A stretch of 64,000 bases of DNA from Candidatus Hadarchaeota archaeon (GTDB lineage: Archaea > Hadarchaeota > Hadarchaeia > Hadarchaeales > JAGGTB01), in contig CAYLJV010000001.1 in assembly GCA_964384105.1 (NCBI GenBank), forward strand, positions 348,900 to 412,899, in the 5' to 3' direction. Positions 13,060 through 64,000 of the stretch are shown here, one piece after another. The first letter of the stretch is position 1, and the number at the start of each line of letters is the position of its first letter. The notes under the pieces were generated by a model that worked only from the letters and a program-made list of their open reading frames with translations, did no database searches and was not told where the DNA came from. The translations under genes were made by a program, and so were the position numbers.

Positions 13060-14385
13060 CTAAATATAGTCCTTTCTTTTTTCTATTAGTCTTTCGGCGT
13101 TTGTCTGATGCTTATCAATTAATTGATCCAAGTTGAATGTTTTCAACTGTTTTTGTTCAACAATTATTTTTCCATCTACTATGACTGTTTCTACCGCACT
13201 TTCTGGAGCCACATAGACTAGATGTTGATACACGTTAGAGTGGTTTCCTGTGAATAATGGCCTTAAACTAGGGGTTCTTAAATCCAATAGAACGATGTCC
13301 GCTTTTTTCCCTTTTTCTAGGGAGCCTATTTGGTCTTCCATTCCTAGGGCTTTTGCTCCATTGATTGTTGCCATTTCAAAAACTTTTTGGGAGGGCATTT
13401 TTGAAGCATCTAGAAATTTTGCTTTCTGTGCCAATGACGCAAATTTCATAGTTTCGAACATATTTACATTATTATTACAAGGTGCATCATCCGGCCCAAG
13501 ACCTACATTTACTCCGAGTTTCAATAGTTCTGTCACTGGAGCAATTCCATTTCCCAGTTTCATATTTGAAACTGGACAATGTGCCACGTTTGTTCCTGTT
13601 TCTGCGTAAATTTTCTTTTCTGCGTCCGAGAGCCAGACGCAGTGTGCGGCGATAACGTCGGTTCCCAGTAATCCTAATTCGTGAGCTAGTTCTGTAGGTC
13701 TTTTCCCATGTTTTTTCAAGCAAGCTTCTACTTCGTCTTTTCCCTCGTTTAGATGTATATGGATGCCTGTATTATACTTGTCAGCTAATTCTCTAGTTTT
13801 TCTGATAAGCTCTTCGGAAGAAATAAGTATCCATTCATTTCCAAACCAGATTTTTATTCTCCCGTTCGACAGCCCATCTTTCTTCTTAAAGGCTCTTTCG
13901 TTATCTTCTAAGCTCTCTAAGTCTTTTACTAAATCGCCTATTGTGCTAGATAGAATTGCCCTTATGCCAATTTCTTCGGCAGCTTCTGCACAAGCTTCGA
14001 GTTTAATATACATATCGTTTGCAGTAGTGGTACCAGATAAAAGTGCCTCGGCATAGGCTATAGCAGCCGAATAATAAACGTCTTCATTTTCCATAGCTCT
14101 AAGCATTGGGTAATATATTTTTTCAAGCCACTCTTCAAGTCCCATATGTTCTCCTACGCCTCGTGACATGTTATCTGAATGGAAATGTAGACTGATTAAA
14201 CCGGGGATAATAAGCTTGTTTTTTGCGTTTATTCTAATGTCCGTGTTGTGTTTTTTCCTCATTTGTTCGGTTTTACCAATGTCAACGATTTTGTTTCCTT
14301 CTATGACTATGGTACCGTCTTTGAGAATTTCCCTTTCGGGATTCATTGTTACAATAATACCGTTTTCAATACTTTTTTTCTCCAA
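13060..14385 (-). CDS. Amidohydrolase, SAH/MTA deaminase-like (paralog 1)
   Basis: PGLISLHFH, SGTTT, HIHLNE, AHCVW, HCPVSNMKLG, GLGPD and GSLEKGKKAD. Confidence 0.9.
   Translation of the reverse strand: MEKKSIENGIIVTMNPEREILKDGTIVIEGNKIVDIGKTEQMRKKHNTDIRINAKNKLIIPGLISLHFHSDNMSRGVGEHMGLEEWLEKIYYPMLRAMENEDVYYSAAIAYAEALLSGTTTANDMYIKLEACAEAAEEIGIRAILSSTIGDLVKDLESLEDNERAFKKKDGLSNGRIKIWFGNEWILISSEELIRKTRELADKYNTGIHIHLNEGKDEVEACLKKHGKRPTELAHELGLLGTDVIAAHCVWLSDAEKKIYAETGTNVAHCPVSNMKLGNGIAPVTELLKLGVNVGLGPDDAPCNNNVNMFETMKFASLAQKAKFLDASKMPSQKVFEMATINGAKALGMEDQIGSLEKGKKADIVLLDLRTPSLRPLFTGNHSNVYQHLVYVAPESAVETVIVDGKIIVEQKQLKTFNLDQLIDKHQTNAERLIEKRKDYI
14212..14376. repeat. 165-bp block near-identical to 17553-17717 (5' ends of amidohydrolase paralogs 1 and 2)
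   Basis: Manual alignment at offset 3341: 4 mismatches in 165 nt. Confidence 0.9.
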
Positions 14386-14464
14386 TTTTATCCTCTACAA
14401 AAATTAACTAAGAAGTTAGAAAAATAAAAAAATAAAAAAGCAAGTTATTCATCCCGTACGATTC

Positions 14465-15535
14465 CTATTCTTCCCACGTGGTCTTGTTAGTGGGTTCTAC
14501 CGTCCCATCAATAATTTTCTCTCTTAAATCCTCGATGTATTCTTTTACTTCATCCGAAACCATGTTTCCCCAAGTAGGTACGTCCAATGACCTATCTTCT
14601 AGATTTAACATCATCTGAGCTTGTTCTTCTCTGAATTCTTCAAATCGTCCTTCTGTGATAGCGCTTAGAACTTCATCCAGTGGCTTCTCCCAATCCCATA
14701 TACCGCAACCAATTAGAGTTTCAGGATAAAACTCCACGATATCTCTGTATTGCATAATTGTGTACATACCTCTTGTTTCTGCTTCCTTTGTTGCTGCGTA
14801 ATCATCTTGGTTAACAAACACTATGTCAATTCCTTGTTCATCGAAACTAGCAACAGTATCTCTGCTTTTCATTGGATCAGAATATGCATCCATTACTACT
14901 TGAGTAACTTCAACATCCGGGTTTGCGTATTCCGCGCCACCTTTGAAAGCATTGGATACAACTCGGTAGCTTCTAGGTCCAGCTATGGCCAATAGAATTC
15001 CTAGCTTATTTGTTTCAGTTATTCTTCCGGCGGCTGCCCCAAGGAGATAGTTTATTTTGTAGGCATTAAGAGCGTTAAGTGCCACTACGTTTGAGGGGAA
15101 TTCATCTTCTTCCAATATGTCTGATTCCCATTCTTGTATAAAGTAGGTATCTGGGTAGTTGGGGGCAACTGTCTTTACGGCTTCGCTAAACTCATCAGTT
15201 TCAACGTAAACTATTTCGTATTTATCTGCTGCATTTCTAATGACTTGCTCAACATCTCTTAGACCAGTTTCTTCTATCCAATGTATTTCTAGATTATATT
15301 TACCTTGTAGTGACTCAATAGCATCAGCATGGCTAGGTGACCATACTCCTTCATCGTGGTGCCACCACATTACGACTCCGATTTCTAGAGGTCCAGATGG
15401 AGTACCGCCATTTCCTTCAGAGTCGGAAGGGGCGATCATATAACCAATTCCGGTACCAGCGGCGATTCCTACTACGAAGACTACTATCATTAGCACGGTA
15501 GTAGTACGGGCTATTCCTTTGTTTGTTTCGAAAAT
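14465..15535 (-). CDS. BMP/PnrA-family ABC substrate-binding protein, probably with class III signal peptide and ATT start
   Basis: BMP-like periplasmic-binding fold (GAAAGRITETNKLG, AFKGGAEYANP, GIDIVF). Frame is open upstream of GTG 15496 to ATT 15535, giving FETNKG/IARTTTVLMIVVFVVG. Confidence 0.82.
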   Translation of the reverse strand: MFETNKGIARTTTVLMIVVFVVGIAAGTGIGYMIAPSDSEGNGGTPSGPLEIGVVMWWHHDEGVWSPSHADAIESLQGKYNLEIHWIEETGLRDVEQVIRNAADKYEIVYVETDEFSEAVKTVAPNYPDTYFIQEWESDILEEDEFPSNVVALNALNAYKINYLLGAAAGRITETNKLGILLAIAGPRSYRVVSNAFKGGAEYANPDVEVTQVVMDAYSDPMKSRDTVASFDEQGIDIVFVNQDDYAATKEAETRGMYTIMQYRDIVEFYPETLIGCGIWDWEKPLDEVLSAITEGRFEEFREEQAQMMLNLEDRSLDVPTWGNMVSDEVKEYIEDLREKIIDGTVEPTNKTTWEE

Positions 15536-15730
15536 AGCTTATCCCCTTCTTTATATGATAATGTAACTTAAATAAAGTTTTTGTTAGCTTCTAAACTTTT
15601 ATTTTTAAATAAAAGGGTTTAAATCATTTCTAATAGTTATTTGGCCAATAGATTTATCTTAGGTCTATAAAGAAAGATTTAATTATCTTTATTATTTATA
15701 TATTCTTAAAATTGTTTTCAATAGCTGAGA

Positions 15731-16388: not shown

Positions 16389-17726
16389 CTATAGCGGTAT
16401 TTCTTTAATGTAGTCTTTTCTTCTTTCTAGGATTTTTTTGGATTTGATTTGGTGTTCTTCTAGTGTGTTGTGGAGGTTTATTGTTTTCAAGGTTTTATTC
16501 TCGACTATGGTTTTGCCGTCTACAATTACGGTGTGGACTGCGTTTGTGGGTGAGGAGTATATTAGGTTTTGGTAAATGTTGGAGTAGTCCGATAGGTGTA
16601 TTGGTCTTAGGTTTGGTGTTTCTAGGTCGAGTAGGACGATGTCTGCTTTTTTTCCTTTTTCTAGGGAGCCTATTTGGCCTTCCATTCCTAGAGCTTTTGC
16701 TCCATTGATTGTTGCCATCTCAAAGACCTTTTCAGCCATCATTTGTTTTGCATCAAAGTGAATTGCTTTTTGCATAAGCGAGGCGAATTTCATTGTCTCG
16801 AACATGTGAAAGGTGTCGTTGCAGGCTGCGTCGTCCGTTCCTAGTCCAATATTCACTCCGAGTTTTGATAGGTCGGGGATTGAGGCGATTCCATTTCCAA
16901 ATTTTGCATTGGATACTGGGTTATGTGAGATATGCGTTCCGGTTTCTGCGTAAATTTTCTTTTCCGCGTCTGAAAGCCAAACGCAGTGTGCGGCGACAAC
17001 GTCGGTTCCCAGTAATCCTAATTCATGGGCTAGTTCGGTGGGTCTTTTCCCATGTTTTTTCAAGCAAGCTTTTACTTCTCCTGAAGATTCGTTAAGATGG
17101 ATATGAATACCTGTGTTGTGTTTGTCTGCGAGGTTTCTTGCTTTTATTAAAAATTCTCTGGAGCTGATTGGTAACCATTCGACTCCAAACCAGACTTTGA
17201 TCCTGTCACTGAATTTTTCGCATTTTTTTAAGGCTTTTTCATTATCTTCCAAAGTTGGTTGATCCTCGAGAGAATCGCTTGCCTCACTGGCGAGAACAGT
17301 TCTCATTCCTATATCCTCGGCTGCCTCGGCGAGTTTAACAATGTAATGATACATCCCATTTATCGTGGTCGTTCCAGTGAGGAGGGATTCTGCGTATGCT
17401 GTAACAGCTGATAGATAGGCATCTTTTGGTTCCATCGCAGAAAGATAGGGATAGAGTATGTTTTGGGCCCACTCTTCAAGACTCATATGCTCTCCGATTC
17501 CCCTAATCATGTTTCCAGGATGGAAATGAAGATTTACTAGACCTGGGATAACAAGCTTGTTTTTTGCATTTATTCTAATGTCCGTGTTGTGTTTTTTCCT
17601 CATTTGTTCGGTTTTACCAATGTCAATGATTTTGTTTCCTTCTATGACTATGGTACCGTCTTTGAGAATCTTCCTTTCGGGATTCATTGTTACAATAATA
17701 CCGTTTTCAATACTTTTGTTCTTCAA
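16389..17726 (-). CDS. Amidohydrolase, SAH/MTA deaminase-like (paralog 2)
   Basis: PGLVNLHFH, TGTTT, HIHLNE, AHCVW, HNPVSNAKFG and GLGTD. Confidence 0.9.
   Translation of the reverse strand: MKNKSIENGIIVTMNPERKILKDGTIVIEGNKIIDIGKTEQMRKKHNTDIRINAKNKLVIPGLVNLHFHPGNMIRGIGEHMSLEEWAQNILYPYLSAMEPKDAYLSAVTAYAESLLTGTTTINGMYHYIVKLAEAAEDIGMRTVLASEASDSLEDQPTLEDNEKALKKCEKFSDRIKVWFGVEWLPISSREFLIKARNLADKHNTGIHIHLNESSGEVKACLKKHGKRPTELAHELGLLGTDVVAAHCVWLSDAEKKIYAETGTHISHNPVSNAKFGNGIASIPDLSKLGVNIGLGTDDAACNDTFHMFETMKFASLMQKAIHFDAKQMMAEKVFEMATINGAKALGMEGQIGSLEKGKKADIVLLDLETPNLRPIHLSDYSNIYQNLIYSSPTNAVHTVIVDGKTIVENKTLKTINLHNTLEEHQIKSKKILERRKDYIKEIPL
17553..17717. repeat. Partner of the 14212-14376 near-identical block
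   Basis: 161/165 identical by manual alignment. Confidence 0.9.
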
Positions 17727-17978
17727 TTGATACCCTTGGTCTCTTATCCGTAACTAATACTAGATAAATGTATTTTTACAAAAAGAAATGATTTTTATAT
17801 TTCTCACTATCTTGTGTTAGTTTTTACTCAATTTTTAGAAAAGTAATCGTTTTGGATTTTATAAGTTATCAGATCTTACAGAAAAGATATTTATTAAAAA
17901 CAAATAAGTATTGTTAATCTTTTTAATACATTTAAGAACAACAAGTTGTATTAATCAACATTATTTTTTACGTAAAGT

Positions 17979-19115
17979 TTAGTTACCTTTTTCTAGAATG
18001 TTTTGTAAAATGTTTTTATAATCGTTCTTTGTAGTTTTTCTTGGATTTGAAGGTAGAATCGCAGCGCTTTCAACTATTTTATCTATGTTATCTTCATTTA
18101 CCCCAGTTATTTTGAGGTTTTTTGGGATTCCTAGTTCTATTTTTAGCTCTTCAATTGCTTCAATGGCCTTCCTTGCCGCGTCCATTATCGAGATATTTTC
18201 GGTTTTTTTCCCCATAACTTTGGCAATTTTCGCAAATTTTTCGGGTTTCTCCTTTGAATTAAATTCCATTACTTCGGGAAGTAATAAAGCGCACGTGAGT
18301 CCATGTGGTGTGTCGAAGTGTCCCCCAATTGAATGAGCTAGGGCATGAACATTTCCCAGCAATGCGTTTGTCATGGCTATACCCGCTAAGTTACTTGCCA
18401 TCAACATTTTGCTTCTTGCGTCTAGGTTGCTTCCATTACGAGTAACTAGAATTATATTTTTTGATATTAATCTAATAGCTTCTAAGGAAAAAAGATCTGT
18501 GTATGGGTCCGAGAAAGAAGAGACATATGCTTCTATGGCATGAGTTAATGCATCCAACCCTGTATGAGCTGTTATTTTCTTAGGTAGACTCAGCGTCAGT
18601 TTTGGATCTAGAATCGCTGTTTTTGCTGCAAAATGCCAGCTGAGGACAAGCATCTTGTAGTTTCTTTTTGTATCTGTTATTACTGCCCCTCTACTAACCT
18701 CACTACCTGTGCCCGCTGTGGTGGGGACCAGCATTATTGGAGAAGCAGGATATTTTATTTTCTCGATACCTTCGTATTGGTTTATTTTTCCTGGGTTCCT
18801 ACTCATCGCTGCTACGGCTTTTGCAGTATCCATTGAACTTCCCCCTCCTAGACCCACTACAGAATCGCAATTATTTTCTTTAAAAAATTTCAAACCTTTT
18901 GAGATTGTGGTGTCCTTGGGGTTTGGTTCTACTTTGTCGAAGACGGACGTATTAAAATTATTTTCTGTAAGCTCCAAAATTTGTTTCATTATTTCCGTTT
19001 TCGCAATACCTTTATCGGTAACTAGTAGTAGGTTGTGTGCACCAATTTCAGTAAGTTCCTTGTTAATTTCAGAGATTTTACCAGAACCGAATATCAGTTT
19101 CGTAGCGATCTTCAA
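17979..19115 (-). CDS. Iron-containing (group III) alcohol dehydrogenase
   Basis: GLGGGSSMDTAK, PTTAGTGSEV, GLDALTHAIEAY, GNVHALAH and HGLTCA. TTG start after GAGGTGA. Confidence 0.93.
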   Translation of the reverse strand: MKIATKLIFGSGKISEINKELTEIGAHNLLLVTDKGIAKTEIMKQILELTENNFNTSVFDKVEPNPKDTTISKGLKFFKENNCDSVVGLGGGSSMDTAKAVAAMSRNPGKINQYEGIEKIKYPASPIMLVPTTAGTGSEVSRGAVITDTKRNYKMLVLSWHFAAKTAILDPKLTLSLPKKITAHTGLDALTHAIEAYVSSFSDPYTDLFSLEAIRLISKNIILVTRNGSNLDARSKMLMASNLAGIAMTNALLGNVHALAHSIGGHFDTPHGLTCALLLPEVMEFNSKEKPEKFAKIAKVMGKKTENISIMDAARKAIEAIEELKIELGIPKNLKITGVNEDNIDKIVESAAILPSNPRKTTKNDYKNILQNILEKGN

Positions 19116-19292
19116 TTGGTCACCTCTATTTAAAATGGCTACTGTTCAAATATTTAAGGTCTTGCTATTGACTTAGATTTAATCAAGCGATTTAAGATAG
19201 CATTAAAGTAATTGAAAGATGATATTCTTAAAATCTATTCAGGATTAATTATTTCGACAATTATATTTCTTTTTTTCTAGGAAAATCTATAT

Positions 19293-20867
19293 TTACTGAT
19301 TTACTTCTTTTCCAATCATACATAGCCCTATTTCTTCTTTTTCAGTTTTCCTAGCATTGAGCACTGACACAATTTTACCTTCGTAGATAACTGCAATCCT
19401 GTCGCTTATCATCATTATTTCATCCAAGTCTTCGGATATCAACAGTATGCCTTTTCCTTTTTTCTTTTCATCCAGTAGAAGATTTCGAATATATTCTTGA
19501 GAACCGACGTCTAGTCCAGCCGTGGGTTTATCCACAAGAAGGAAGTCCGGATTATGAGAAAACTCTCTAGCTAACATGAGTCTCTGTATGTTGCCTCCCG
19601 ATAGCTTACCGGCCAGTTTGTCTAATGTGGGAGTTTGGATATCATACTGTTCTATTAGATTTTCTGCGTTTTCATTGACCTCTTTTTCGTTAACGAAAAA
19701 GTTTTTGTTCCAGGGTATTAACCAAGAATCTGCGAAAGGACAACGCCTGTGTAAACCAAGTATTAAATTTTCGGCTATAGAGCATTCGGGTACTATTCCA
19801 CTCACTCTTGCACTTTCTGGTAAATATCCAATACCTAATTCCCTTTTTTCTTTTGGTCCTTTGCTCGTAATGTCTTTGCCTTTGTATATTATCTGACCCT
19901 CCATAGGCTTCCTAAGACCCATAATAACTTCTACAAGTTCTTTCTGTCCATTTCCGCTCACACCGGCTATTCCAACGATCTCCCCCCTTCTAACTGATAA
20001 AGAAACTTCTTTCAAAGCTAGTGTATTTCTTTCGTTTAATGCTTTGACATTCTTTATCTCGAGGATTTTATCTCCTTTTTTGGAAGACGGATTTTTTAAT
20101 TTGAAAAGAACTTCTCTGCCAACCATCTTTTTAGCTATGTCTTTTTTACTTAGATTCTCATTTTTGAAAGTATCAATTACCTTACCTTTTCTGAGAACAG
20201 TAATTCGATCGCTTAATTCAATTACTTCCGGCAGTTTGTGTGTGATAAAAGGAACAGCTGACAACCCTTCTTGGGACATTTTTTGTAAAGTTTTGATTAG
20301 TTCTCTTTTTTCAATAGGACATAGGAAAGCGGTTGGTTCATCTAGAACAAGAATTTCCGCACCTCGGAATAGTGCTTTGATTATTTCTACTTTTTGTTTT
20401 TCACCGGTTGAGATTTGCCATGGTGTGGCTTCTAGATCGACCTTTAAATTGAATTTTTTTTGTATATCTAATATTCTCTCTTTAGCTTTTTCCATATCGA
20501 TAAAGGGACCATTAGTGGGTTCATAGCCAAGTACTATGTTTTCTATAACTTTCAGTGTTGGTACCAACATTATTGATTGGTGGACCATACCAATTCCAAG
20601 TTTTATTGCGTCTTGGGGTGATTTTATGTCTACTTTTTTTCCCCAAACTCTAATTTCGCCTTCATCCATTTGGTATAGTCCGTAGAGAATATTCATTAGA
20701 GTCGTTTTTCCGGAACCATTCTCTCCGAGAATGCTGTGAGTTTCTCCTTTTTTAAGGTTGAAATCTATTTTGTCGTTCGCTATCACACCAGGGAACTTTT
20801 TTATTATCCCCTTCATTTCTAGGATAACCTTTCCTGATTTGAAATCCTCCGAAATAGAATTGCTCAT
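19293..20867 (-). CDS. ABC transporter ATP-binding protein, CUT2/nucleoside (NupA-like), two ABC domains
   Basis: GENGSGKT, LVLDEPT, IAGVSGNGQ, LSGGNIQR and LLISEDLDE. Confidence 0.93.
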   Translation of the reverse strand: MSNSISEDFKSGKVILEMKGIIKKFPGVIANDKIDFNLKKGETHSILGENGSGKTTLMNILYGLYQMDEGEIRVWGKKVDIKSPQDAIKLGIGMVHQSIMLVPTLKVIENIVLGYEPTNGPFIDMEKAKERILDIQKKFNLKVDLEATPWQISTGEKQKVEIIKALFRGAEILVLDEPTAFLCPIEKRELIKTLQKMSQEGLSAVPFITHKLPEVIELSDRITVLRKGKVIDTFKNENLSKKDIAKKMVGREVLFKLKNPSSKKGDKILEIKNVKALNERNTLALKEVSLSVRRGEIVGIAGVSGNGQKELVEVIMGLRKPMEGQIIYKGKDITSKGPKEKRELGIGYLPESARVSGIVPECSIAENLILGLHRRCPFADSWLIPWNKNFFVNEKEVNENAENLIEQYDIQTPTLDKLAGKLSGGNIQRLMLAREFSHNPDFLLVDKPTAGLDVGSQEYIRNLLLDEKKKGKGILLISEDLDEIMMISDRIAVIYEGKIVSVLNARKTEKEEIGLCMIGKEVNQ

Positions 20868-26312: not shown

Positions 26313-26440
26313 GCTTTTAAGAATTAACAATACTACTATCGTACTATTTATTGTACTTGGGTTACTTGTAAACATTTTTTTATTAGTAAGCGGTATATTC
26401 TTTTAGTATTAATTAATTAGGTAAGTTATTGGTGTAATTT

Positions 26441-27466: not shown

Positions 27467-27566
27467 TTATTATTTTTTAATCAATTTTTTTGATATCGGG
27501 GAAAATAAAATAGATTCCACTATTTATAATAAAAATATAAATAGAAGTATCAAGGCTAATCAACTA

Positions 27567-35956: not shown

Positions 35957-35963
35957 AGAAATC

Positions 35964-46733: not shown

Positions 46734-46735
46734 AA

Positions 46736-47107: not shown

Positions 47108-47109
47108 AA

Positions 47110-48930: not shown

Positions 48931-48950
48931 AATTGAAGTAAAATTTAGGT

Positions 48951-49928: not shown

Positions 49929-50053
49929 CAGATTATGAAAAATATTTTAGGAGAACCTCGAAATCTCGTTTTTATTTTTCTAGGTTTGACTTTTATTTGA
50001 TTTCTAACTTTCTAAAAAAATAAGAAATTTTTCAAATCTTCCTTGTCTTATCA

Positions 50054-50072
50054 AAATGTTTATATATGACTG
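50054..50072 (+). promoter_or_regulatory. BRE/TATA promoter, class B (amidohydrolase 3)
   Basis: AAATGTTTATATATGACTG, identical to 58421-58439. Confidence 0.7.
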
Positions 50073-50109
50073 TCTACTCATTTTCAAAAGACTAACAATA
50101 GGTGTTTAG

Positions 50110-51426: not shown

Positions 51427-51542
51427 GCAGTTTAGGATTTTGATGGTTTCTTTTTCATGTATCTTGGGTGGTTTGTTTGGAATTTGTAAGAACGTAAAGT
51501 TTAAATACCTGCGTTGGGGTATTTACAGAGGTATAAAAACCC

Positions 51543-53455: not shown

Positions 53456-53456
53456 T

Positions 53457-57088: not shown

Positions 57089-58371
57089 AGTTGGAAGAGA
57101 GGATTAAGCAAGTGGAGGAGCATATAGAAAAGGTCAGAAGCAAAGAAAAGACCCCATTTAAGGAACTTGACGATTGGGTGTACAAATGTACAGGATGCTC
57201 GAGCTGTCAAGGTTTCTACAGGGAAAATCCACCATTACATCCCCCGATAGAGCATTGGAGGGGGGAACAAACGTATGATCAAACTTGCCCTATAATGTCT
57301 GGTAGTCGTTTTGAAGTTGAAACTCCTTCTGGTCTTCTCTGGTCTATTAAGGGTTATCTTGAAGGAATTATACCGATGAAAGAAGAAGCTCTCGAAAGAT
57401 TGTTTAAATGTACTAGTTGCGCAGCTTGTGAATATGAGTGCTATGGGGATCATGGTGAAAAAATTAGCAAGATTATTAGATCAGTTCGTGAGAACCAGAT
57501 AAAAGAGGGCAAAGTCCCGCCTAAGATTAGGGATTTTTTAGAGAATATTTATGTCACTAATAATCCGTGGGGGTCTCCGAAAAGTAGGAGAATGGAATGG
57601 TCAAAAGAACTTGATAATATTAAAGAGTATGATTCTGATGATGAATACTTGTACTATGTTGGCTGCGTGGGTTCTTATGATGAATATAGCCAAACAATGA
57701 CAAGTAATACATACACCCTATTGAATAAGGCTGGTATTTCATTTGGTATATTATCAGATGAAATCTGTGATGGTGCTGAAGTAAATCAGATCGGTGAAAC
57801 AGGGTTGTATGAGGAATTAGCAAGGCAGAATATTGAGAAATTCAAAAATTTAGGTGTTAAGAAGATAGTTGCTCTTTCACCTCATGCGTATGATGTTTTT
57901 AAGAACGAATACCCATTTGAAGAAAAATATCCGGAATTTGAAGAAGTTATACATTATACTCAATTGTTATCCGAGGTTATTCAAGAAGGAAAGTTAAACA
58001 CAGGCAATTATGAGGCTAAAGTTACTTATCATGATCCCTGTTATTTGGGCAGACACAACGATATATATGAGGAACCAAGAGATGTGCTAAAGTCAATAGA
58101 TGGGATTGAACTCATCGAAATGAGACGTACGAAAAACAGGTCTTTTTGTTGCGGTGGAGCAACTGGAAATTTCTATACGGATATGATAAGTTCGAGCGTA
58201 GGTAATGCAAGTCGAGATAGAATCATAGAGGCTTATGAAAATGATGCAGAAATTTTAGCAGTTTCTTGTCCAATATGCATGACCATGTTGAAAGACGCGG
58301 TGAAACAAGAAAATCTTGAAAAGGAACTGGCTGTAATGGACATTTCGGAGATAGTAATTAAATCACTATGA
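57085..58371 (+). CDS. (Fe-S)-binding CCG-domain protein (GlcF/HdrD-like)
   Basis: CTGCSSCQ...CP, CTSCAACEYEC, YYVGC, YHDPC, CCGG and SCPIC. Confidence 0.88.
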   Translation: MKLEERIKQVEEHIEKVRSKEKTPFKELDDWVYKCTGCSSCQGFYRENPPLHPPIEHWRGEQTYDQTCPIMSGSRFEVETPSGLLWSIKGYLEGIIPMKEEALERLFKCTSCAACEYECYGDHGEKISKIIRSVRENQIKEGKVPPKIRDFLENIYVTNNPWGSPKSRRMEWSKELDNIKEYDSDDEYLYYVGCVGSYDEYSQTMTSNTYTLLNKAGISFGILSDEICDGAEVNQIGETGLYEELARQNIEKFKNLGVKKIVALSPHAYDVFKNEYPFEEKYPEFEEVIHYTQLLSEVIQEGKLNTGNYEAKVTYHDPCYLGRHNDIYEEPRDVLKSIDGIELIEMRRTKNRSFCCGGATGNFYTDMISSSVGNASRDRIIEAYENDAEILAVSCPICMTMLKDAVKQENLEKELAVMDISEIVIKSL

Positions 58372-58420
58372 GATTCCTTGGAAACATAGTTTTGTATTTT
58401 TTACATTTTTTTGTTACGCG

Positions 58421-58439
58421 AAATGTTTATATATGACTG
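58421..58439 (+). promoter_or_regulatory. BRE/TATA promoter, class B (etf operon)
   Basis: Identical 19-mer to 50054-50072, 31 nt before the etfB start measured from the motif end. Confidence 0.7.
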
Positions 58440-58469
58440 GGTTAGAAGACTAGAATGTTGGTGTAATTT

Positions 58470-59270
58470 GTGAAAATTTGCGTTTGCGTGAAAAGGGTGC
58501 CTGCTTCTTTGGAGGACATTGAACTCACGGAAAGTGGGGAAATAGAAGAGAAATACTTGAGTTTCGGTATTAATGAGTACGATACTTATTCTCTCGAGGA
58601 AGCAGTGCAATTGAAGGAGAATATCGGTGGGGAAGTAATTGTCGTGATTTTGGGACCTGAAGAAGCAAATGAGATTGCAAAACAGTGTATCGCAAAGGGT
58701 GCAGATCGAGCTATAAGAATATTCGATCAATCGTTACATGAAAAACAGATAGAAGATGTTTACTGTAAATCGATGATCATGAAAAATGTTTTTGAAGACT
58801 TAAATCCCGATTTGATCTTTACTGGAGCACAGTCAAACGATGGATGCCACGCTCAGTTTGGAGTTACGTTGGCAGCTTTATTGGGTTTTCATTATGCATC
58901 GTTAGTTTCTGAATTAGATCTGAATTTCGATTCCAAAAAGGCTATAGTTCAAAGAGAACTTGAGGGAGGTATAGAAGAAAAAGTAGAAATAAGCTTACCA
59001 GCTGTTCTTACTGTCCAAACAGGTTTAAACGAACCCAGATATGCTTCTCTTATGGCGATAAGAAGGGTTAATGATTCAAATATTGAATTTAAGGATTTTG
59101 ATAGCATTGGATTAGATGCAAGGGATCTAGAAGAGACCTTTTTTATGACAGAAATAGAAAGGCTTTACAAGCCTCCAGAAACTGAAATGGCAGAAATTTT
59201 TGAAGGGTCTCCTGAAGAATCAGCTTCCAAATTGTTTGATAAATTGGATGAAGATGGCTTGGTGAATTAA
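58470..59270 (+). CDS. etfB: Electron transfer flavoprotein beta subunit
   Basis: VCVKRVP, INEYD..SLEEA, GADRA, GAQSND, RELEGG and LNEPRYASL. Confidence 0.95.
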   Translation: MKICVCVKRVPASLEDIELTESGEIEEKYLSFGINEYDTYSLEEAVQLKENIGGEVIVVILGPEEANEIAKQCIAKGADRAIRIFDQSLHEKQIEDVYCKSMIMKNVFEDLNPDLIFTGAQSNDGCHAQFGVTLAALLGFHYASLVSELDLNFDSKKAIVQRELEGGIEEKVEISLPAVLTVQTGLNEPRYASLMAIRRVNDSNIEFKDFDSIGLDARDLEETFFMTEIERLYKPPETEMAEIFEGSPEESASKLFDKLDEDGLVN

Positions 59271-59271
59271 A

Positions 59272-60237
59272 ATGGTTTTTGTTTTGGTCGAACATAGAGA
59301 TGGTGAAATAAGAGATATAACCTTTGAAATGTTGCGCTTAGCTTGGGACATTAAAAGTAAAGATGATAAGGAAAAGGTGACCGCAATATTGTTTGCAGAA
59401 GATACAGAGGGTTTATTTTCAGAATTGGATTCTTGGGCCGATGAAGTTTTAACATTTGCCGATCCTAAATTGAAAAATTTTAACGCCGATGTTTACAGAC
59501 AACTATTGGAGTCAGTCATTAAAGAGAGAAATCCGAAATTGATTATCTTGGGTCATACTGCTCAGGGGATTAATTTAGCTCCGGCGGTTTCAGCTGATCT
59601 TGGTATCCCTCTGGTGACCTCTGTGAGACACTTAGAGAGGTATGATGGTGGCCCTATAGTTATGCGAACTATGTATGGGGAAAAAATTAATTCAGATATT
59701 AAATTTAAAAAAAGAGATCAGTATATGATTACACTCCAAGCTGGATCTTTTGCTATCGATGAATCACCAGGTGCTACTACCGAAATGGTTGAGATGGACT
59801 TGTCTATTAATGATGACGATATTTTTCAGAAATTTTTGGGCTTTATAGAACCTGAAATAGGTGAAGTCGATATATCTTCATCTGAATTTCTTGTAGCCGT
59901 TGGACGAGGTATAGGTGAAAAAGCTAATATGGACATTATCGAGGAACTTGCGGATCTTTTAAATGCCGATATATGTTGCTCTAGACCGGTTATAGACAAT
60001 GGATGGCTTTCTAAAGATAGGCAAGTTGGGCAAAGTGGTAAGTACGTTAAGCCAAAGCTCTATGTGGCCGTAGGAATTAGTGGTGCTCTTCAACACACGA
60101 TTGGGATTAAGGGAGGTACAATAGTCGCAATTAATAAGGATGCCCAAGCTCCAATATTCAAATTTGCAGATTATGGAATTGTTGGAGATTTGTTTGATGT
60201 TGTACCTGCACTCGTCGATAAACTAAAAGAATCATAG
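59272..60237 (+). CDS. etfA: Electron transfer flavoprotein alpha subunit
   Basis: VAVGRGIG, CCSRPVID, QVGQSGK, GISGALQH and AINKDAQAPIF. Confidence 0.95.
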   Translation: MVFVLVEHRDGEIRDITFEMLRLAWDIKSKDDKEKVTAILFAEDTEGLFSELDSWADEVLTFADPKLKNFNADVYRQLLESVIKERNPKLIILGHTAQGINLAPAVSADLGIPLVTSVRHLERYDGGPIVMRTMYGEKINSDIKFKKRDQYMITLQAGSFAIDESPGATTEMVEMDLSINDDDIFQKFLGFIEPEIGEVDISSSEFLVAVGRGIGEKANMDIIEELADLLNADICCSRPVIDNGWLSKDRQVGQSGKYVKPKLYVAVGISGALQHTIGIKGGTIVAINKDAQAPIFKFADYGIVGDLFDVVPALVDKLKES

Positions 60238-60335
60238 TGAATACTGGTGGCGGTCCTCTTTATTGCTCTTTAATCATAATCCCCAATTTCTTCAACGTAA
60301 AGTTTATATATGGGTGAGGCGGAGTTAACCATAAC

Positions 60336-61475
60336 TTGGTGATTCTTTTGGAAAGTACAGTTCCCGATTCAGAGGAAAGAGATAGAATAAAGAGTTATTT
60401 CAAGGCTGACATAGATTTTTGCTACCAATGTGGTGGATGTACAGGAGTATGTCCTTGGGGTGAGCTGACAGATTTTAATCCCAGGAAACTCATTCGTATT
60501 GCTCAACTGGGTTTATCAAATCTGACTTCCGAGGATATATGGTATTGCACATCTTGCTCCGAGTGTGTTGATCATTGTCCTCACCAAATTCTAGTACCCG
60601 AGATTATGAGTAGTCTTAGAGCGTCTAATATTGAGAAGGGGAAATTACCAAAACCAGCCCAGGAGGCACTTGAAAGCTTATATAGCTTAGGAAACCCTTG
60701 GGGTGGCAGTAAAAGGAAAAGAATAGAATGGACTAAAGATCTGAATATAAGCGAATATGAAGACCAAGAGGTTCTTTGGTGGGTGGGTTGTACCCCTGCT
60801 TATGATGAAAGAAGTCAGGAAGTAGCGAAGGTTTTAACAAAAATTTTTGATGCGATAGACGTTGATTTCGGAATTCTTGGGCTGGAAGAGCAGTGTTGCG
60901 CAGAAATGGCTTTATGGTTGGGGGAGGTGGGACTTTTTGAAAGCTTTGTTGAGAAAAATTTAGAGATTTTTAAAAATTCGGGAGCAGAAAAGATAATCAC
61001 CACATCTCCGCACTGTTATGATGTTTTTAGGAATAGATATCCGGATATTGGAATTGACTTTTTGCATTATACACAGTATTTACATGAAAAGTTAGGTGAT
61101 TTTAGATTTTCAAATGAATTCAATTTCAACGTTATTTATCAGGATCCTTGCACTCTTGCTCGTCGTAACGAAGTCTACGAAGAACCACGGGTTCTTTTAC
61201 AGAAAGTGCCAGGTCTGAACTTATTGGAATTGGATAAAAACAGAGGGATGGCTCTGTGCTGTGGAGGTGGTGGTGGCAGAATTTTGATGGAAACCGATCC
61301 TGAAGAGAGATTCTCGAATATTATCCTCGAAAATGCTTTGAATAAAGGTGCTGAAGTTCTTGCTACGACATGTCCGTTTTGCCTGCTAAATTTTGAGGAT
61401 AGTGTAAAGACGCTTGGCGTTGAAGATCAAATTAGAATAATGGACATCTCGGAAATCTTGTTTAAAGCTCTTTGA
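60336..61475 (+). CDS. HdrD-like (Fe-S)-binding CCG-domain protein
   Basis: CYQCGGCTGVCP, CTSCSECVDHCP, WVGC, QCC, QDPC, CCGGGGG and TCPFC. Confidence 0.88.
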   Translation: MVILLESTVPDSEERDRIKSYFKADIDFCYQCGGCTGVCPWGELTDFNPRKLIRIAQLGLSNLTSEDIWYCTSCSECVDHCPHQILVPEIMSSLRASNIEKGKLPKPAQEALESLYSLGNPWGGSKRKRIEWTKDLNISEYEDQEVLWWVGCTPAYDERSQEVAKVLTKIFDAIDVDFGILGLEEQCCAEMALWLGEVGLFESFVEKNLEIFKNSGAEKIITTSPHCYDVFRNRYPDIGIDFLHYTQYLHEKLGDFRFSNEFNFNVIYQDPCTLARRNEVYEEPRVLLQKVPGLNLLELDKNRGMALCCGGGGGRILMETDPEERFSNIILENALNKGAEVLATTCPFCLLNFEDSVKTLGVEDQIRIMDISEILFKAL

Positions 61476-61485
61476 GGAGATAAAA

Positions 61486-63462
61486 TTGACGAATGATAAA
61501 GATGAAAGAATAGGAGTATATGTTTGCCATTGCGGGACAAATATAGCGGGGACTGTTGATGTTAAAGAAGTTGTCAAATTTGCTGCTAATTTAGACGGTG
61601 TAGTCGTTTCTAGGGATTATGAATTTATGTGTTCGGATCTTGGACAAAAGCTGATAGCAAAAGATATTGAAAAATTAGATTTGAATAGGGTAGTAGTCGC
61701 TGCTTGTTCTCCGACGCTCCATGAAGAGACTTTTATGCGAGTTATGGAGAATGCGGGGTTAAATAGATTTGAATTTTTACAAGCAAATATAAGGGAATTA
61801 TGTTCGTGGGTAACTATTGATGGGTTGAAGGCAACAGAAAAAGCAAAGAGATTAGTTAAGGCTGCAGTTAACAGAGTCATAGAGCATGACCCTATAGAAA
61901 TTCGCGAAATTGAAGTTACCCCTAAGGCTTTGGTGGTTGGAGGTGGCATTGCGGGTATAGAGGCTGCTTTGGATATTGCAGGTTCAGGTAAGGAAGTATA
62001 CCTGATTGAAAAATCTCCTAGTATTGGGGGTCATATGGCTAAGCTTGATAAGACCTTTCCGACACTTGACTGTTCTAGTTGTATTCTTACTCCTAAAATG
62101 GGTGAAGTTTTACATAGTCCTAAAATATCTCTGATGACTTACACCGAGGTAGAATCTGTCGATGGATTTCCTGGGAATTACAAGGTCAGATTAAGGAAGA
62201 ATGCTAGGTACGTTGATGAGGAGAAGTGCAATGGTTGTGGTATTTGTCAGGAGAAATGCCCGGCAAAGGTACCTAGTGAATTTAATGAAGGAATGAGTAA
62301 TAGAAAAGCTATATATATTCCGTTTCCGCAGGCGGTTCCTCAAGTTCCGGTTATAGATGAGGGAAACTGTATATACCTTGCTACTGGTAAGTGCCGAACT
62401 TGTCAATTAAATTGTCCTCGTGATGCGATAGATTTTGAGCAGAAAGATGAAATAGTTGAGATTGAGGTAGGGAATATAATTATTGCAACAGGTTACGAGC
62501 TTTTTGATCCTAGTGAGCTTGAACGCTATGGATATAGAAAATACGATAATGTGCTAACTTCTCTAGAAGCCGAAAGAATGATTGACTCAAGTGGACCTAC
62601 TGGAGGAAAAATTTTGCTCTCTGATGGAGGGGAACCAGAGAGCGTGGCTATAATACATTGTGTTGGTAGTAGAGACAAAAATTTTCATGAATATTGCTCT
62701 AAGGTTTGTTGCATGTATTCTATGAAATTGGCCCACCTTATTAGAGAGAAAACTGGGGCCAATATTTACGAATTTTATATGGATATTCGTGCTGGTGGTA
62801 AAGGGTATGAAGAATTTTACAATAGATTACAGGAGGAGGGAGTAGTGTTCGTCAGGGGAAAACCGGGGAATATAGAAATAATCAGTGAAGAGGATCAATT
62901 AGTTGTAAAATCGGAGGATACCTTACTGGGGCAGAGGATTAATGTTCCAGTTAATATGGTGATACTTAGTCCTGCAATGATACCTAGTACTGATTCTGAT
63001 AAGATTTCTAATGCATTTGCCATAAGTCGTGATAAGGATGGTTTTTTCATGGAGAGACATCCTAAGTTAGCACCGGTTAATACTTCAAGCGATGGTATAT
63101 TCTTGGCAGGTGCTTGTCAGGGACCAAAAGACATTCCTGAATCAGTAGCTCAAGGTGCCGCTTCTGCGGAGGAAGCTGTTAAGATGATTGATGCAGGTGT
63201 ACTAAGGCTTGAGCCTTATGTCTCCAAGATCGATGAGGATATTTGCGCAGGTTGTAAGATTTGTATAAGCGTTTGCCCCTTCGATGCTATAGAGTTTGAT
63301 GAGGAAAAGGGCGTGTCAAGAGTGGAGGAAACTCTTTGTAAGGGATGTGGCACTTGTGTTTCGGTTTGTCCTTCTGGAGCTGCTGATCAATTTGGATATA
63401 GGGACAAGCAGATTTTTGCGGAAGTTATATCGAATGCTGGTAGATTGGAGGAAAGGTTGTAA
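61486..63462 (+). CDS. hdrA: Heterodisulfide reductase subunit A (flavin/Fe-S)
   Basis: CHCG, VAACSP, GGGIAG, TFPTLDCSSC, two ferredoxin motifs, CVGSRD..CSKVCC and GACQGP. Confidence 0.95.
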   Translation: MTNDKDERIGVYVCHCGTNIAGTVDVKEVVKFAANLDGVVVSRDYEFMCSDLGQKLIAKDIEKLDLNRVVVAACSPTLHEETFMRVMENAGLNRFEFLQANIRELCSWVTIDGLKATEKAKRLVKAAVNRVIEHDPIEIREIEVTPKALVVGGGIAGIEAALDIAGSGKEVYLIEKSPSIGGHMAKLDKTFPTLDCSSCILTPKMGEVLHSPKISLMTYTEVESVDGFPGNYKVRLRKNARYVDEEKCNGCGICQEKCPAKVPSEFNEGMSNRKAIYIPFPQAVPQVPVIDEGNCIYLATGKCRTCQLNCPRDAIDFEQKDEIVEIEVGNIIIATGYELFDPSELERYGYRKYDNVLTSLEAERMIDSSGPTGGKILLSDGGEPESVAIIHCVGSRDKNFHEYCSKVCCMYSMKLAHLIREKTGANIYEFYMDIRAGGKGYEEFYNRLQEEGVVFVRGKPGNIEIISEEDQLVVKSEDTLLGQRINVPVNMVILSPAMIPSTDSDKISNAFAISRDKDGFFMERHPKLAPVNTSSDGIFLAGACQGPKDIPESVAQGAASAEEAVKMIDAGVLRLEPYVSKIDEDICAGCKICISVCPFDAIEFDEEKGVSRVEETLCKGCGTCVSVCPSGAADQFGYRDKQIFAEVISNAGRLEERL

Positions 63463-63464
63463 TT

Positions 63465-63884
63465 ATGAATGAGTTTGAACCCCGGATAGTAGCTCTTTTA
63501 TGTAGGTGGTGTACTTATCAAGCTGCTGATACTGCAGGTACGAGTAGGATGAAATATCCGTTTAATGTTACCTCTATTAGAGTACCATGCTCTGGTAGAG
63601 TTGATCCCACTTTTGTGCTAAAAGCTTTTGAGGAGGGCGCTGACGGAGTTTTTATCGGTGGATGCCACCCTGGAGAATGCCATTATAGAGAGGGCAACTA
63701 CAGCGCAATGGGTAGGATACCTATTTTGAAGAATTTACTTAGCCAATTTGGCATAGATAAAGAGAGAGTTAGGTTGGAATGGGTTTCTGCTTCCGAACCA
63801 AGTAAGTTTGTCTCAACTGTAACTGATTTTACTGAGGAAATAAGAAAACTTGGGCCTTTGGACTGGGATGAGGTGATACTGTGA
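63465..63884 (+). CDS. mvhD: MvhD [2Fe-2S] subunit
   Basis: CRWCTY, RVPCSGRV, GADGV..GGCHPGECHY and WVSASE. Confidence 0.95.
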   Translation: MNEFEPRIVALLCRWCTYQAADTAGTSRMKYPFNVTSIRVPCSGRVDPTFVLKAFEEGADGVFIGGCHPGECHYREGNYSAMGRIPILKNLLSQFGIDKERVRLEWVSASEPSKFVSTVTDFTEEIRKLGPLDWDEVIL

Positions 63885-64000
63885 GTGAAAAACTAAAGTT
63901 TGCTTTTTATTGGGCTGCGAGTTGTGGTGGTTGCGATGTAGTTGTTTTGGATATAGATGAGAAGATACTGGATATAATTGAGATAGCCGATATCGTTTTT
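63881..64000 (+). CDS. mvhG: MvhG hydrogenase small subunit (3'-truncated by window edge)
   Basis: GTG start overlapping the mvhD stop; translates MSEKLKFAFYWAASCGGCDVVVLDIDEKILDIIEIADIVF (not in the ORF track). Confidence 0.88.
   Translation, partial: MSEKLKFAFYWAASCGGCDVVVLDIDEKILDIIEIADIVF

Follow-up and report, generated by a model that had tools for sequence, protein, structure and literature searches.

Do the genes that occupy much of a 64,000-nucleotide stretch of archaeal DNA form a single catabolic pathway, and which compound would enter it? The stretch (contig CAYLJV010000001.1 of a Candidatus Hadarchaeota archaeon, positions 348,900 to 412,899; hereafter the window) carries, from position 13,060 onwards, genes for AOR-family enzymes, an ACMSD-like decarboxylase of the Amidohydro_2 family, HxxE hydrolases of the Amidohydro_1 family, a YlmB-family M20 deacylase, a TenA-like protein and BMP-type ABC transporters. 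A preliminary description, made from the sequence alone, had read this region of about 50 kb as an undescribed, O2-independent archaeal pathway for 5-substituted aminopyrimidines. Fifty open reading frames (ORFs) of the window were translated and scanned against Pfam and NCBIfam, and every gene family of that description was found at the coordinates it had been given. As argued below, gene order in related contigs indicates a conserved functional unit, whose firmest element is a poly-4Fe-4S (Fer4) subunit gene joined to an AOR gene, and positions 13,060-54,722 of the window appear to be a spread-out, paralogue-rich copy of this unit. We regard it as a real and apparently undescribed anaerobic catabolic cluster with a plausible mechanism. 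The probability that it serves the O2-independent, side-chain-trimming catabolism of an imported amino N-heteroaromatic base, with thiamine-type aminopyrimidines as the lead substrate, is put at roughly 0.4.

A core cluster recurs in archaeal and bacterial contigs

Synteny was followed from three independent anchors, namely the TenA-like protein, the Amidohydro_2 decarboxylase and the 640-residue AOR, and additionally by a search from the M20 protein. Co-occurring genes were counted manually, on the basis of ORF lists, alignments and Pfam matches, for 12 of the 14 loci with an orthologue of this AOR, leaving out L035 and L036 (2.5-2.9 kb); 8 of the 10 metagenome AOR loci were annotated, and loci with an AOR of about 40% identity were set aside. 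A compact core cluster of 6-20 kb was found in at least 15 unrelated contigs, from Hadarchaeales, other uncultured archaea and two bacterial metagenome-assembled genomes (MAGs). It consists of Fer4-AOR, Amidohydro_2, HxxE Amidohydro_1, YlmB-family M20 and AllG-like genes, a zinc-type alcohol dehydrogenase (Zn-ADH) and a BMP-type ABC transporter. HxxE hydrolases occur in every locus of at least 10 kb and a class-III transaminase in most related loci; RidA, a cyclase-family amidase and enzymes of the xanthine dehydrogenase (XDH) family are further frequent partners. The search for conserved clustering that the preliminary description had proposed was thus positive for the core, in archaeal and in two bacterial contigs, and the clustering is indeed without thiD or thiE: neither the window nor the annotated genes of the related loci gave a Pfam match to a thiD, thiE or thiC family.

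The closest related contig (L001), which also encodes MCM, Cdc6 and the small subunit of PolD, carries a TenA-like gene next to, and divergent from, Fer4-AOR-Amidohydro_2, its product being 73% identical to that of the window. An HxxE hydrolase, a Bmp gene, a homologue of the 518-residue amidohydrolase of the window and BMP-type permeases lie nearby, with serine hydroxymethyltransferase (SHMT) and arginase-family genes at the periphery. In the Hadarchaeum MAG L022, a single co-directional run encodes a MoaD/ThiS-like protein, Fer4, AOR, Amidohydro_2, an ABC ATPase, an HxxE hydrolase, two permeases and a second AOR. The metagenome loci L024 and L027 combine the core, within about 20 kb, with a second AOR, an HxxE hydrolase, Aminotran_3, AllG and a ThiS-like protein, and further with RidA, Zn-ADH, M20, cyclase-family and XDH-family genes; L024 also has Bmp and an ABC transporter. 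L034 holds Bmp, M20, two hydrolases, Zn-ADH, RidA, Amidohydro_2, Fer4-AOR, AllG, a transaminase, a second AOR, a cyclase-family gene and AllH. L031 contains RidA, two hydrolases, an orthologue of the 580-residue AOR of the window and Fer4-AOR-Amidohydro_2-AllG, with glycerate kinase and enolase at its periphery, and L075 contains a hydrolase, Fer4-AOR, a second AOR, a transaminase, Zn-ADH, a cyclase-family gene and AllG together with a thiolase/DUF35 trio. Shorter loci place Fer4-AOR beside Amidohydro_2 (L030, L033), a hydrolase (L032) or cyclase and RidA genes (L028, L029).

The two bacterial MAGs, L109 and L112, share the order Zn-ADH, AOR, HxxE hydrolase, transaminase, ABC ATPase, permease, M20, permease, Bmp, Bmp, followed downstream by XDH, nitroreductase and cyclase-family genes; AllG is present in L109, whereas the sequence of L112 stops inside the cyclase gene. 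Both place the M20 gene between the two permeases (L109 8968-12184, L112 7772-10988), an unusually tight link between deacylase and uptake. The route is not specifically archaeal, since L109 carries a Proteobacteria label and the gene order of L112 agrees with it. The claim of an undescribed O2-independent archaeal route appears to stand in its novelty, open-literature searches having found no description of the gene combination, but not in its restriction to archaea.

This conservation has to be set against the possibility that there is no single pathway, and that separate operons stay together through shared regulation or shared use of ferredoxin. These would serve nucleoside uptake, deaminases of the methylthioadenosine (MTA), S-adenosylhomocysteine (SAH) or 5'-deoxyadenosine type, aldehyde detoxification by AOR and alcohol dehydrogenase (ADH) in amino-acid fermentation, the HemL-like pair, a thiolase, and hydroxy-acid oxidation with electron-transfer flavoprotein (ETF) and Hdr. 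The window genes do fall, over the two strands, into about 12 transcription units, the redox blocks, HemL-like genes and 644-residue AOR are not conserved with the core, AORs are broad-range enzymes, and the best NCBIfam matches of the hydrolases are deoxyadenosine- and MTA-type deaminases. Conversely, the same 8-10 families were reached from three anchors in compact, often co-directional clusters of archaea and bacteria, the M20 gene lies between permeases in L109 and L112, transporter genes lie between those for decarboxylase and hydrolase in L022, and the hydrolases all score below the equivalog cut-offs and lack a Glu aligned to 'WPxE'. The absence of a single pathway is judged rather improbable.

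The AOR and its partner decarboxylase

AFOR_N and AFOR_C domains are present in all three AOR-family proteins. The best solved relatives of the 640-residue AOR are true broad-range AORs, 9MQX (E 9e-121), 1AOR (3e-116) and 8C0Z (4e-100). Its orthologues in 14 other contigs are 65-76% identical, and paralogues stand clearly apart at no more than 45%. The Amidohydro_2 gene adjoins Fer4-AOR in 9 of the 13 loci read, the window included, and this pairing is most simply read as the oxidation of an aldehyde to a carboxylate that would then be lost as CO2.

Among solved structures, the Amidohydro_2 protein is closest to human ACMSD (4e-43), followed by LigW (9e-37) and isoorotate decarboxylase (IDCase; 8e-27). 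The metal ligands of human ACMSD (HxH, His and Asp) and its catalytic His are all kept ('DIHSHI', 'VHP', 'PHAGG', 'GSDYPF'), as is the equivalent of the second ACMSD Arg ('KRIDH' versus 'GRISH'); the first is not aligned to an Arg. ACMSD-class enzymes use substrates whose carboxylate stands ortho to an amino or hydroxy substituent of an unsaturated or aromatic system.

A MoaD/ThiS-like gene stands beside the AOR in L022, L024 and L027. Both remaining AORs of the window were considered as the conserved second AOR of the related loci. Only the 580-residue protein has an orthologue there (62%, in cluster L031); the 644-residue protein shares no more than 32-41% identity with AORs of related loci, none of which has a LUD/CCG gene. 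Its gene and the adjoining gene for a LUD-4Fe4S-CCG fusion (29404-33520) probably lie outside the conserved unit.

The YlmB-family deacylase and the TenA-like protein

The M20 protein contains the PF01546 and PF07687 domains and passes the NCBIfam model NF006370 with 534 bits against a cut-off of 412, which places it in the ArgE/YlmB class of deacylases and not among the AllC/AmaB ureidohydrolases. Its homologues include Bacillaceae proteins, several named 'formylaminopyrimidine deformylase' by JGI and one named 'Amidohydrolase YlmB' in UniRef. Over 418 residues, its full length, it is 47% identical (E 6e-154) to YlmB of Halalkalibacter akibai (P0199), which is encoded in locus L111 in the order thiamine pyrophosphate (TPP) riboswitch (74.8 bits), ylmB, tenA and ABC/NMT1 transporter (thiXYZ). 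The label 'YlmB-like' was therefore correct, and at this level of identity the substrate may differ from formyl-aminomethylpyrimidine (FAMP). Orthologues are found in L024, L027, L034, L109 and L112, at about 42-57% identity where measured, the L027 protein being assigned from its family and length alone. The surroundings of a Coprothermobacterota homologue are unrelated.

The TenA-like protein matches PF03070 with 82.7 bits (gathering cut-off 22) and retains the equivalents of Cys135 ('FITCPWTY' versus 'LLPCYWLY') and Glu205 ('EYEYMFW' versus 'YYEYQFW') of Bacillus subtilis TenA, both of which are invariant through a five-member clade. In TenA, Asp44 is the pyrimidine-binding residue. Identity to any canonical TenA found is no more than about 30%, and 23% to the TenA of L111. 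The clade is rare, with five members in a search of 5.8 billion proteins and about 10 clusters at E <= 1e-30 among 1.84 billion representatives. A profile search of the species representatives of GTDB returned no member of it, only canonical TenAs of at most 30% identity, from Bifidobacterium, Aliarcobacter and Methanomethylicia. In L112 (13582-14262), a 226-residue TENA_THI-4 protein with no NCBIfam match is encoded directly after the two Bmp genes. It shares just 19% identity with the TenA-like protein of the window, which indicates a separate recruitment of the TENA fold, and TENA-family genes thus appear to have joined the cluster twice, independently. The TenA-like gene of the window is a lineage-specific addition to the conserved unit.

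YlmB and TenA are salvage enzymes in Bacillus, and the whole assembly might run towards synthesis. The AOR would then work in reverse, drawing on reduced ferredoxin or flavodoxin to convert a pyrimidinecarboxylate into the aldehyde, from which an ADH, or a transaminase with TenA, would produce hydroxymethylpyrimidine (HMP) for thiamine. AOR-family enzymes are generally known to be able to reduce acids, the flavodoxin gene of the window lies between the AOR operon and the TenA-like operon, and dedicated reductases for carboxylate recycling have been predicted (PMC11223231). However, the decarboxylase in the AOR operon, two or three ring hydrolases, XDH, AllG and RidA would destroy the pyrimidine, neither thiD nor thiE lies nearby, a riboswitch is missing, and the gene investment is far too big for vitamin salvage. 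Salvage is accordingly judged very unlikely.

Transporters and HxxE hydrolases

The window encodes one Bmp protein, two double ABC ATPases and three BPD_transp_2 permease pairs, so that a binding protein accompanies one of the three sets. The ATPase at 19293-20867 is 53% identical to that of the Hadarchaeum operon L022, and the permeases of pair 1 are 55% and 65% identical to those of L022. Bmp genes are also present in L001, L024, L034, L109 and L112. The sole NCBIfam match of the Bmp protein of the window, at a weak 61 bits against a cut-off of 400, is the 'putative B6 ABC transporter SBP' (substrate-binding protein), and this predicted B6 transporter is the only NCBIfam match of every Bmp protein tested (61-87 bits against the same cut-off).

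This match raises the question of whether the mechanism is as proposed and the substrate another azine: a B6 vitamer, 6-hydroxymethyl- or 6-formylpterin from folate breakdown, a 5-hydroxymethyl- or 5-formyl-cytosine or -uracil base, or preQ1. For B6, pyridoxamine or pyridoxine would pass through pyridoxal and 4-pyridoxate to decarboxylation, and the two ADHs, several AORs and transaminase would suit its two oxidisable side chains. ACMSD-class enzymes (LigW, resorcylate/salicylate decarboxylases, IDCase) act on carboxylates ortho to OH or NH2, a change of Asp44 to Asn in the TenA-like protein could suit an oxo rather than an amino ring, and XDH and enamidase-like hydrolases recall anaerobic nicotinate breakdown, the enamidase match of the 518-residue protein being weak. 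Yet the Bmp matches fall far below the cut-off, B6 offers no ring amino group to the two or three HxxE hydrolases, and the M20 protein most resembles YlmB, an enzyme known to act on a pyrimidine. These candidates are scarce too, and the present evidence does not separate them from one another. We consider such a substrate unlikely.

The three Amidohydro_1 proteins are 438-445 residues long, with their HxH, HxxE ('HLNE'), His and Asp motifs all intact; these catalytic motifs are invariant across 11 aligned sequences. Their best NCBIfam scores, 335-401 bits, belong to deoxyadenosine/MTA-type deaminases with cut-offs of 522-609, all below equivalog level; for paralogue 1, the 5'-deoxyadenosine deaminase model is best (401 bits, cut-off 522). 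It shares 59-61% identity with hydrolases of the L001, L022 and L024 clusters. At the position of 'WPTE' in the MTA/SAH deaminase 4F0R, the hydrolases have 'YPML', in which Leu replaces the Glu of 'WPxE'. According to work on Tm0936, this Glu binds ribose, and its replacement hints that the hydrolases might accept a free base rather than a nucleoside. As a separate observation, paralogues 1 and 2 are near-identical over their first ~65 residues and a middle tract, and each is only 54-62% identical to paralogue 3, a pattern that points to gene conversion in patches, paralogues 1 and 2 lying about 2 kb from each other.

Hydrolases of this type would also suit hydrolytic purine fermentation, the long-known clostridial route whose genes were never assigned, or a variant of it that opens rings to formamides. 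The route leads from xanthine through 4-ureido-5-imidazolecarboxylate, 4-amino-5-imidazolecarboxylate, 4-aminoimidazole, imidazolone and formiminoglycine to glycine. Amidohydro_1 proteins would open or deaminate the ring; M20, cyclase-family and AllG proteins would remove ureido or formyl groups; Amidohydro_2 would decarboxylate aminoimidazolecarboxylate; RidA would hydrolyse imines; and the transaminase, AOR and ADH would handle glycine and glyoxylate. BMP/PnrA proteins classically bind purine nucleosides, as their Pfam name records, purines are abundant substrates, and XDH-family genes occur in L024, L027, L109 and L112. The genes of the route were unassigned in the 2012 genome paper on C. 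acidurici (PMC3519856), and SsnA, a cog0402 relative of the hydrolases, cleaves the ring in anaerobic urate breakdown (PMC12507026). The peripheral SHMT and arginase-family genes of L001, glycerate kinase and enolase of L031 and AllH of L034 fit as well. What this explanation leaves unexplained is the tight, conserved Fer4-AOR-Amidohydro_2 unit. Furthermore, it has no role for TENA-family genes, the M20 protein is of the ArgE/YlmB and not the AllC/AmaB type, and the NCBIfam models for guanine deaminase and SsnA score far below cut-off on the hydrolases. An XDH gene is missing from the window, no locus has AllF, and L034 alone has AllH. Purine fermentation is given low odds.

Aminotransferases, AllG and accessory genes

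The two class-III aminotransferases of the window reach the NF000818 subfamily cut-off and fall below the hemL equivalog cut-off. They are 84% identical to each other. Over at least 300 nt, starting 41 nt ahead of the start codon (37829-38128 and 39685-39984), the two gene copies are 100% identical, and the proteins have diverged in their remaining part. The pair looks like the product of a recent gene conversion or duplication, or possibly reflects an assembly effect. These proteins were tried as orthologues of the transaminase of the conserved cluster and rejected at 28% identity; they are at best functional stand-ins for it, and their genes are probably neighbours rather than components.

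The AllG/DUF1116 protein has a single solved relative, the uncharacterised 3CLQ (2e-103). Its orthologues in L024, L031, L034 and L075 are 51-67% identical, and AllG-family proteins were also called in L027 and L109. Neither AllF (FdrA) nor AllH, its partner subunits, is encoded in the window; AllH occurs only in L034 and AllF in none of the loci. No AllH, RidA or cyclase-family protein was found among the window's unknown ORFs, even at E <= 1. The thiolase, DUF35 and ~230-residue proteins encoded at 45561-47799 have counterparts beside AllG in L075 (12845-15085; 52%, 33% and 30% identity). Their assignment to an archaeal mevalonate thiolase is doubtful, given that no HMG-CoA synthase accompanies them, that the genes directly follow the decarboxylase gene and that the trio lies near AllG in L075; they may provide an unrecognised CoA-dependent step of the same system.

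The Zn-ADH has orthologues of 55% identity in L034 and L075, and the iron-type enzyme (Fe-ADH) is found beside RidA-M20-RidA in the Hadarchaeales locus L108. The 518-residue amidohydrolase has a 55% identical counterpart next to the Bmp gene of L001 (2280-3776) and no close solved relative, molinate hydrolase and enamidase matching at E 1e-6 to 1e-3. The flavodoxin, a possible low-potential electron carrier, was not seen in the related loci.

Boundaries of the unit and the redox blocks

To the left of position 13060 lie genes for a response regulator, a MoxR-DUF58-transglutaminase operon, a Y-family polymerase, a tRNA and a 2-oxoacid:ferredoxin oxidoreductase. These are unrelated to the cluster, and a left boundary at about 13060 is therefore sensible. 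The G+C content is uniform, 0.34-0.41 inside the region and 0.35-0.43 to its left, which rules out an island in the sense of horizontal transfer; only a functional neighbourhood is meant. The 50-kb island of the preliminary description is accordingly retained as a gene neighbourhood, not as a compositional island, and its last 9 kb (55511-63884) are a separate redox block, set apart from the catabolic genes by a gene for a TFIIB-repeat protein.

That description had also assigned the ETF/Hdr/Mvh proteins to the pathway as its electron sink, a role that is not supported: the block is never co-located with the core in about 16 related loci. In L110, genes for an FAD oxidase, ETF and LarA make up a lactate-type module. 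Given this absence and its position behind the TFIIB gene, the block at 55511-63884, and probably also the fusion gene at 31484-33520, is read as a neighbouring module of hydroxy-acid oxidation and electron bifurcation. The likelier electron acceptors are the poly-ferredoxin subunit of the AOR and perhaps the flavodoxin.

Positions of the main genes and gene groups of the window, with the basis of each assignment
Feature	Position	Strand	Basis and context
HxxE Amidohydro_1 paralogue 1, 441 aa	13060..14385	-	PF01979 260 bits; downstream of Bmp gene
BMP/PnrA-family ABC substrate-binding protein	14465..15496	-	PF02608 103 bits
HxxE Amidohydro_1 paralogue 2	16389..17726	-	Pfam; apparent operon 16389..20867
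Fe-ADH	17979..19115	-	Pfam; apparent operon 16389..20867
Double ABC ATPase	19293..20867	-	Pfam; apparent operon 16389..20867
BPD_transp_2 permease pair 1	21046..22902	+	Pfam
AOR-family enzyme, 580 aa	23001..24743	-	AFOR_N + AFOR_C
YlmB-family M20 deacylase	25056..26312	+	NF006370 passed; apparent operon 25056..29006
Zn-ADH	26441..27466	+	Pfam; apparent operon 25056..29006
Atypical amidohydrolase, 518 aa	27450..29006	+	Weak, split Pfam matches; apparent operon 25056..29006
AOR-family enzyme, 644 aa	29404..31338	+	Pfam
LUD-4Fe4S-CCG fusion (LutB/LdhH-like)	31484..33520	+	Pfam/NCBIfam
Second transporter set: double ABC ATPase and permease pair, without binding protein	34026..37475	-	Pfam
HemL-like class-III aminotransferase 1	37870..39213	+	PF00202
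HemL-like class-III aminotransferase 2	39726..41069	+	PF00202
Poly-4Fe-4S subunit, conserved core	41910..42458	+	Gene overlaps AOR start
AOR, 640 aa, conserved core	42448..44370	+	AFOR_N + AFOR_C
ACMSD-like Amidohydro_2 decarboxylase, conserved core	44484..45467	+	PF04909 129 bits
Thiolase-like, DUF35 and 229-aa protein (weak GNAT match)	45561..47799	+	Pfam/NCBIfam; directly downstream of decarboxylase
Flavodoxin	47977..48525	-	PF00258
TenA-like (TENA_THI-4)	49128..49928	+	PF03070; apparent operon 49128..54722
HxxE Amidohydro_1 paralogue 3	50110..51426	+	Pfam; apparent operon 49128..54722
Permease pair 3	51543..53455	+	Apparent operon 49128..54722
AllG/DUF1116	53457..54722	+	PF06545 272.6 bits; apparent operon 49128..54722
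TFIIB-repeat protein, 191 aa	54808..55383	+	Pfam
GlcD-like FAD oxidase, CCG, EtfB, EtfA, HdrD-like, HdrA-like, MvhD	55511..63884	+	Pfam

The TFIIB-repeat protein, located between the AllG-like gene and the GlcD/ETF/Hdr block, consists of cyclin repeats only. A typical archaeal TFB has about 300 residues, and the 191-residue protein may be a dedicated regulator or a truncated paralogue. In the left part of the window, an intron-containing tRNA (2252-2348; Rfam 55 bits) was left without an anticodon assignment by ARAGORN, and a minus-strand operon at 4937-11986 encodes a MoxR AAA ATPase, a DUF58 protein, a 369-residue protein of unknown family and a 970-residue transglutaminase-core protein with Ig-like repeats. 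Rfam, applied at gathering score to the whole window and at E <= 1 to 13000-55600, returned only one tRNA and one chance match to a long non-coding RNA. A G+C-rich patch (48700-48935) stands out within the 600-bp A+T-rich spacer from the flavodoxin gene to the TenA-like gene. It has no Rfam match, neither strand folds significantly (z -1.4 and -1.1), and the short spacer that L001 has in this place lacks it; the patch could encode a small RNA, or serve as a regulatory element, that has escaped recognition. As regards the setting, the TFIIB-repeat protein and the intron-containing tRNA mark the window as archaeal, microbial-mat metagenomes contain near-identical sequence, and Hadarchaeales MAGs are the source of the nearest named homologues of several window proteins.

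A proposed route and the evidence weighed against it

What the sequences show is the identity of the genes, their motifs, and their synteny with its conservation; all substrates, the order of steps and the direction of flux given here are inferred. A BMP-type ABC transporter would import the compound, and the YlmB-family M20 enzyme would strip an N-formyl or N-acetyl group from its aminomethyl side chain. The side chain could become an aldehyde in either of two ways, directly from CH2NH2 by a class-III transaminase, or by a TenA-type displacement to CH2OH followed by the Zn- or Fe-ADH. A tungsten-type AOR with its own poly-ferredoxin subunit would oxidise the aldehyde to a ring carboxylate, reducing ferredoxin, and the adjacent metal-dependent decarboxylase of the ACMSD/IDCase class would take off the carboxyl group. 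HxxE amidohydrolases would then deaminate or open the ring, and in the related loci AllG-like, RidA, cyclase-family amidase and XDH-family proteins would complete the release of nitrogen. The best-specified candidate substrates are FAMP, aminomethylpyrimidine, HMP and 2-methyl-4-amino-5-pyrimidinecarboxylate, the last of which is a known breakdown product of thiamin without a known fate (PMC11223231). It is a tentative and somewhat doubtful suggestion from these sequences that the cluster might represent the first O2-independent dismantling of the thiamine pyrimidine, or of a close analogue, by way of this carboxylate.

The chain first proposed, from FAMP through the aminomethyl, 5-formyl and 5-carboxy compounds to the unsubstituted ring, is a coherent reading of the AOR-decarboxylase unit taken with the YlmB homologue, and is partly supported. 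The two independent recruitments of TENA genes support it, as does the weak but consistent likeness of the Bmp proteins to a predicted B6 (azine) transporter and not to a nucleoside binder. A scheme of the ectoine or reductive-pyrimidine type (ring hydrolase, deacylase, omega-transaminase, aldehyde oxidation) was also tried; it fits several genes, and was set aside for want of a place for the AOR-decarboxylase unit or TENA.

Several observations weigh against the trimming of a thiamine-type pyrimidine. The transaminase of the conserved cluster is of the gamma-aminobutyrate (GABA)/acetylornithine type, and such enzymes usually use aliphatic omega-amines. The two transaminases in the first proposal are of class III, as stated there, but are recent HemL-like duplicates and not orthologues of this enzyme. 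The place given to TenA is supported by the TENA domain, the retained Cys and Glu and the second TENA gene in L112, and is weakened by the rarity of the clade: its gene is present in only 2 of about 16 loci and is thus accessory. The TenA-like protein also misses the TenA equivalog TIGR04306 (77.9 bits against 130) and has Asn in place of Asp44 ('QNEYY' versus 'QDSYY'), invariant in the clade; the L112 protein lacks the catalytic Cys ('NFSVWWS').

Other points concern the wider setting. ETF, CCG/HdrD, HdrA, MvhD and LUD genes were found next to the core in none of the ~16 related loci, and the second AOR differs between loci. A decarboxylase gene adjacent to the AOR was not seen within the contig read in L075 and L032, and a Heimdallarchaeota homologue of the Amidohydro_2 protein (40%; L025) lies in a urocanase/HAL histidine-utilisation context, so that membership of the family alone is not diagnostic. 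Rfam detects no TPP riboswitch in 13000-55600 even at E <= 1, and Pfam no thiamine-synthesis family among the 50 window proteins. Thiamine fragments are scarce relative to an investment of three AORs, three hydrolase paralogues and three transporter sets, and AllG/AllH, RidA, cyclase-family, XDH and thiolase/DUF35 proteins have no assigned step in the scheme.

Should the proposal be correct, strict anaerobes would be shown to remove one-carbon side chains from N-heteroaromatic rings without oxygenases. Functions would follow for many proteins of uncultured archaea that are annotated as 'amidohydrolase', 'acetylornithine deacetylase' or DUF1116, and it might become clear what happens in anoxic mats and sediments to pyrimidines that derive from vitamins, or to purines or B6; pairs of a reversible carboxylase and an acid reductase would be of interest in biocatalysis. 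In the case of thiamine, the 'orphan' pyrimidinecarboxylate would gain a metabolic fate, and the fungal IDCase step a prokaryotic, anaerobic counterpart in Hadarchaeales-like archaea and some bacteria. The analysis yields a small, concrete set of proteins for expression and testing.

Comparison with known systems

The formylaminopyrimidine salvage operon of Bacillus (TPP riboswitch-ylmB-tenA-thiXYZ) resembles the cluster in its YlmB-family M20 protein, a TENA protein with Cys and Glu, and ABC-type uptake. Unlike that operon, the window has no riboswitch, its binding protein is of the BMP and not the NMT1/ThiY type, and its TenA-like protein has diverged. Moreover, AORs, a decarboxylase and ring hydrolases take the place of thiamine synthesis genes as neighbours, which would imply destruction rather than reuse of the imported compound.

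In fungal thymidine salvage, thymine 7-hydroxylase and IDCase similarly oxidise a one-carbon group at C5 to a carboxylate that is removed by an Amidohydro_2 decarboxylase. Oxidation in the cluster would instead be independent of O2, by way of ADH or transaminase, tungsten AOR and ferredoxin and not of a 2-oxoglutarate dioxygenase, and the decarboxylase of the window is nearer to ACMSD and LigW, with homology to IDCase detectable (8e-27). The AOR of Pyrococcus furiosus and AorABC of Aromatoleum aromaticum share the AFOR_N/AFOR_C architecture and the Fe-S subunit gene. However, an FAD subunit gene is absent here, and the AOR is consistently paired with an ACMSD-like decarboxylase and N-heterocycle hydrolases, a pairing that literature searches did not find.

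Clostridial xanthine fermentation, the reductive urate pathway of Escherichia coli and the AllFGH pathway of allantoin have in common with the cluster a cog0402 Amidohydro_1 protein (SsnA-like), an M20 protein (YgeY-like), AllG and a hydrolytic anaerobic logic, to which the related loci add XDH-family genes and AllH (L034). In the oxamate carbamoyltransferase AllFGH, AllG acts with its partner subunits AllF (FdrA) and AllH (PMC11326118). The proteins described here nevertheless score below the cut-offs for SsnA, YgeY and guanine deaminase, and YgfK, YgeW, YgeX, HyuA, AllF and carbamate kinase are absent. The AOR, decarboxylase, ADH and TENA genes are, in turn, foreign to the purine and ureide pathways. 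All of the families are thus known from other systems, and it is their combination, together with the O2-independent route that it implies, that appears to be new.

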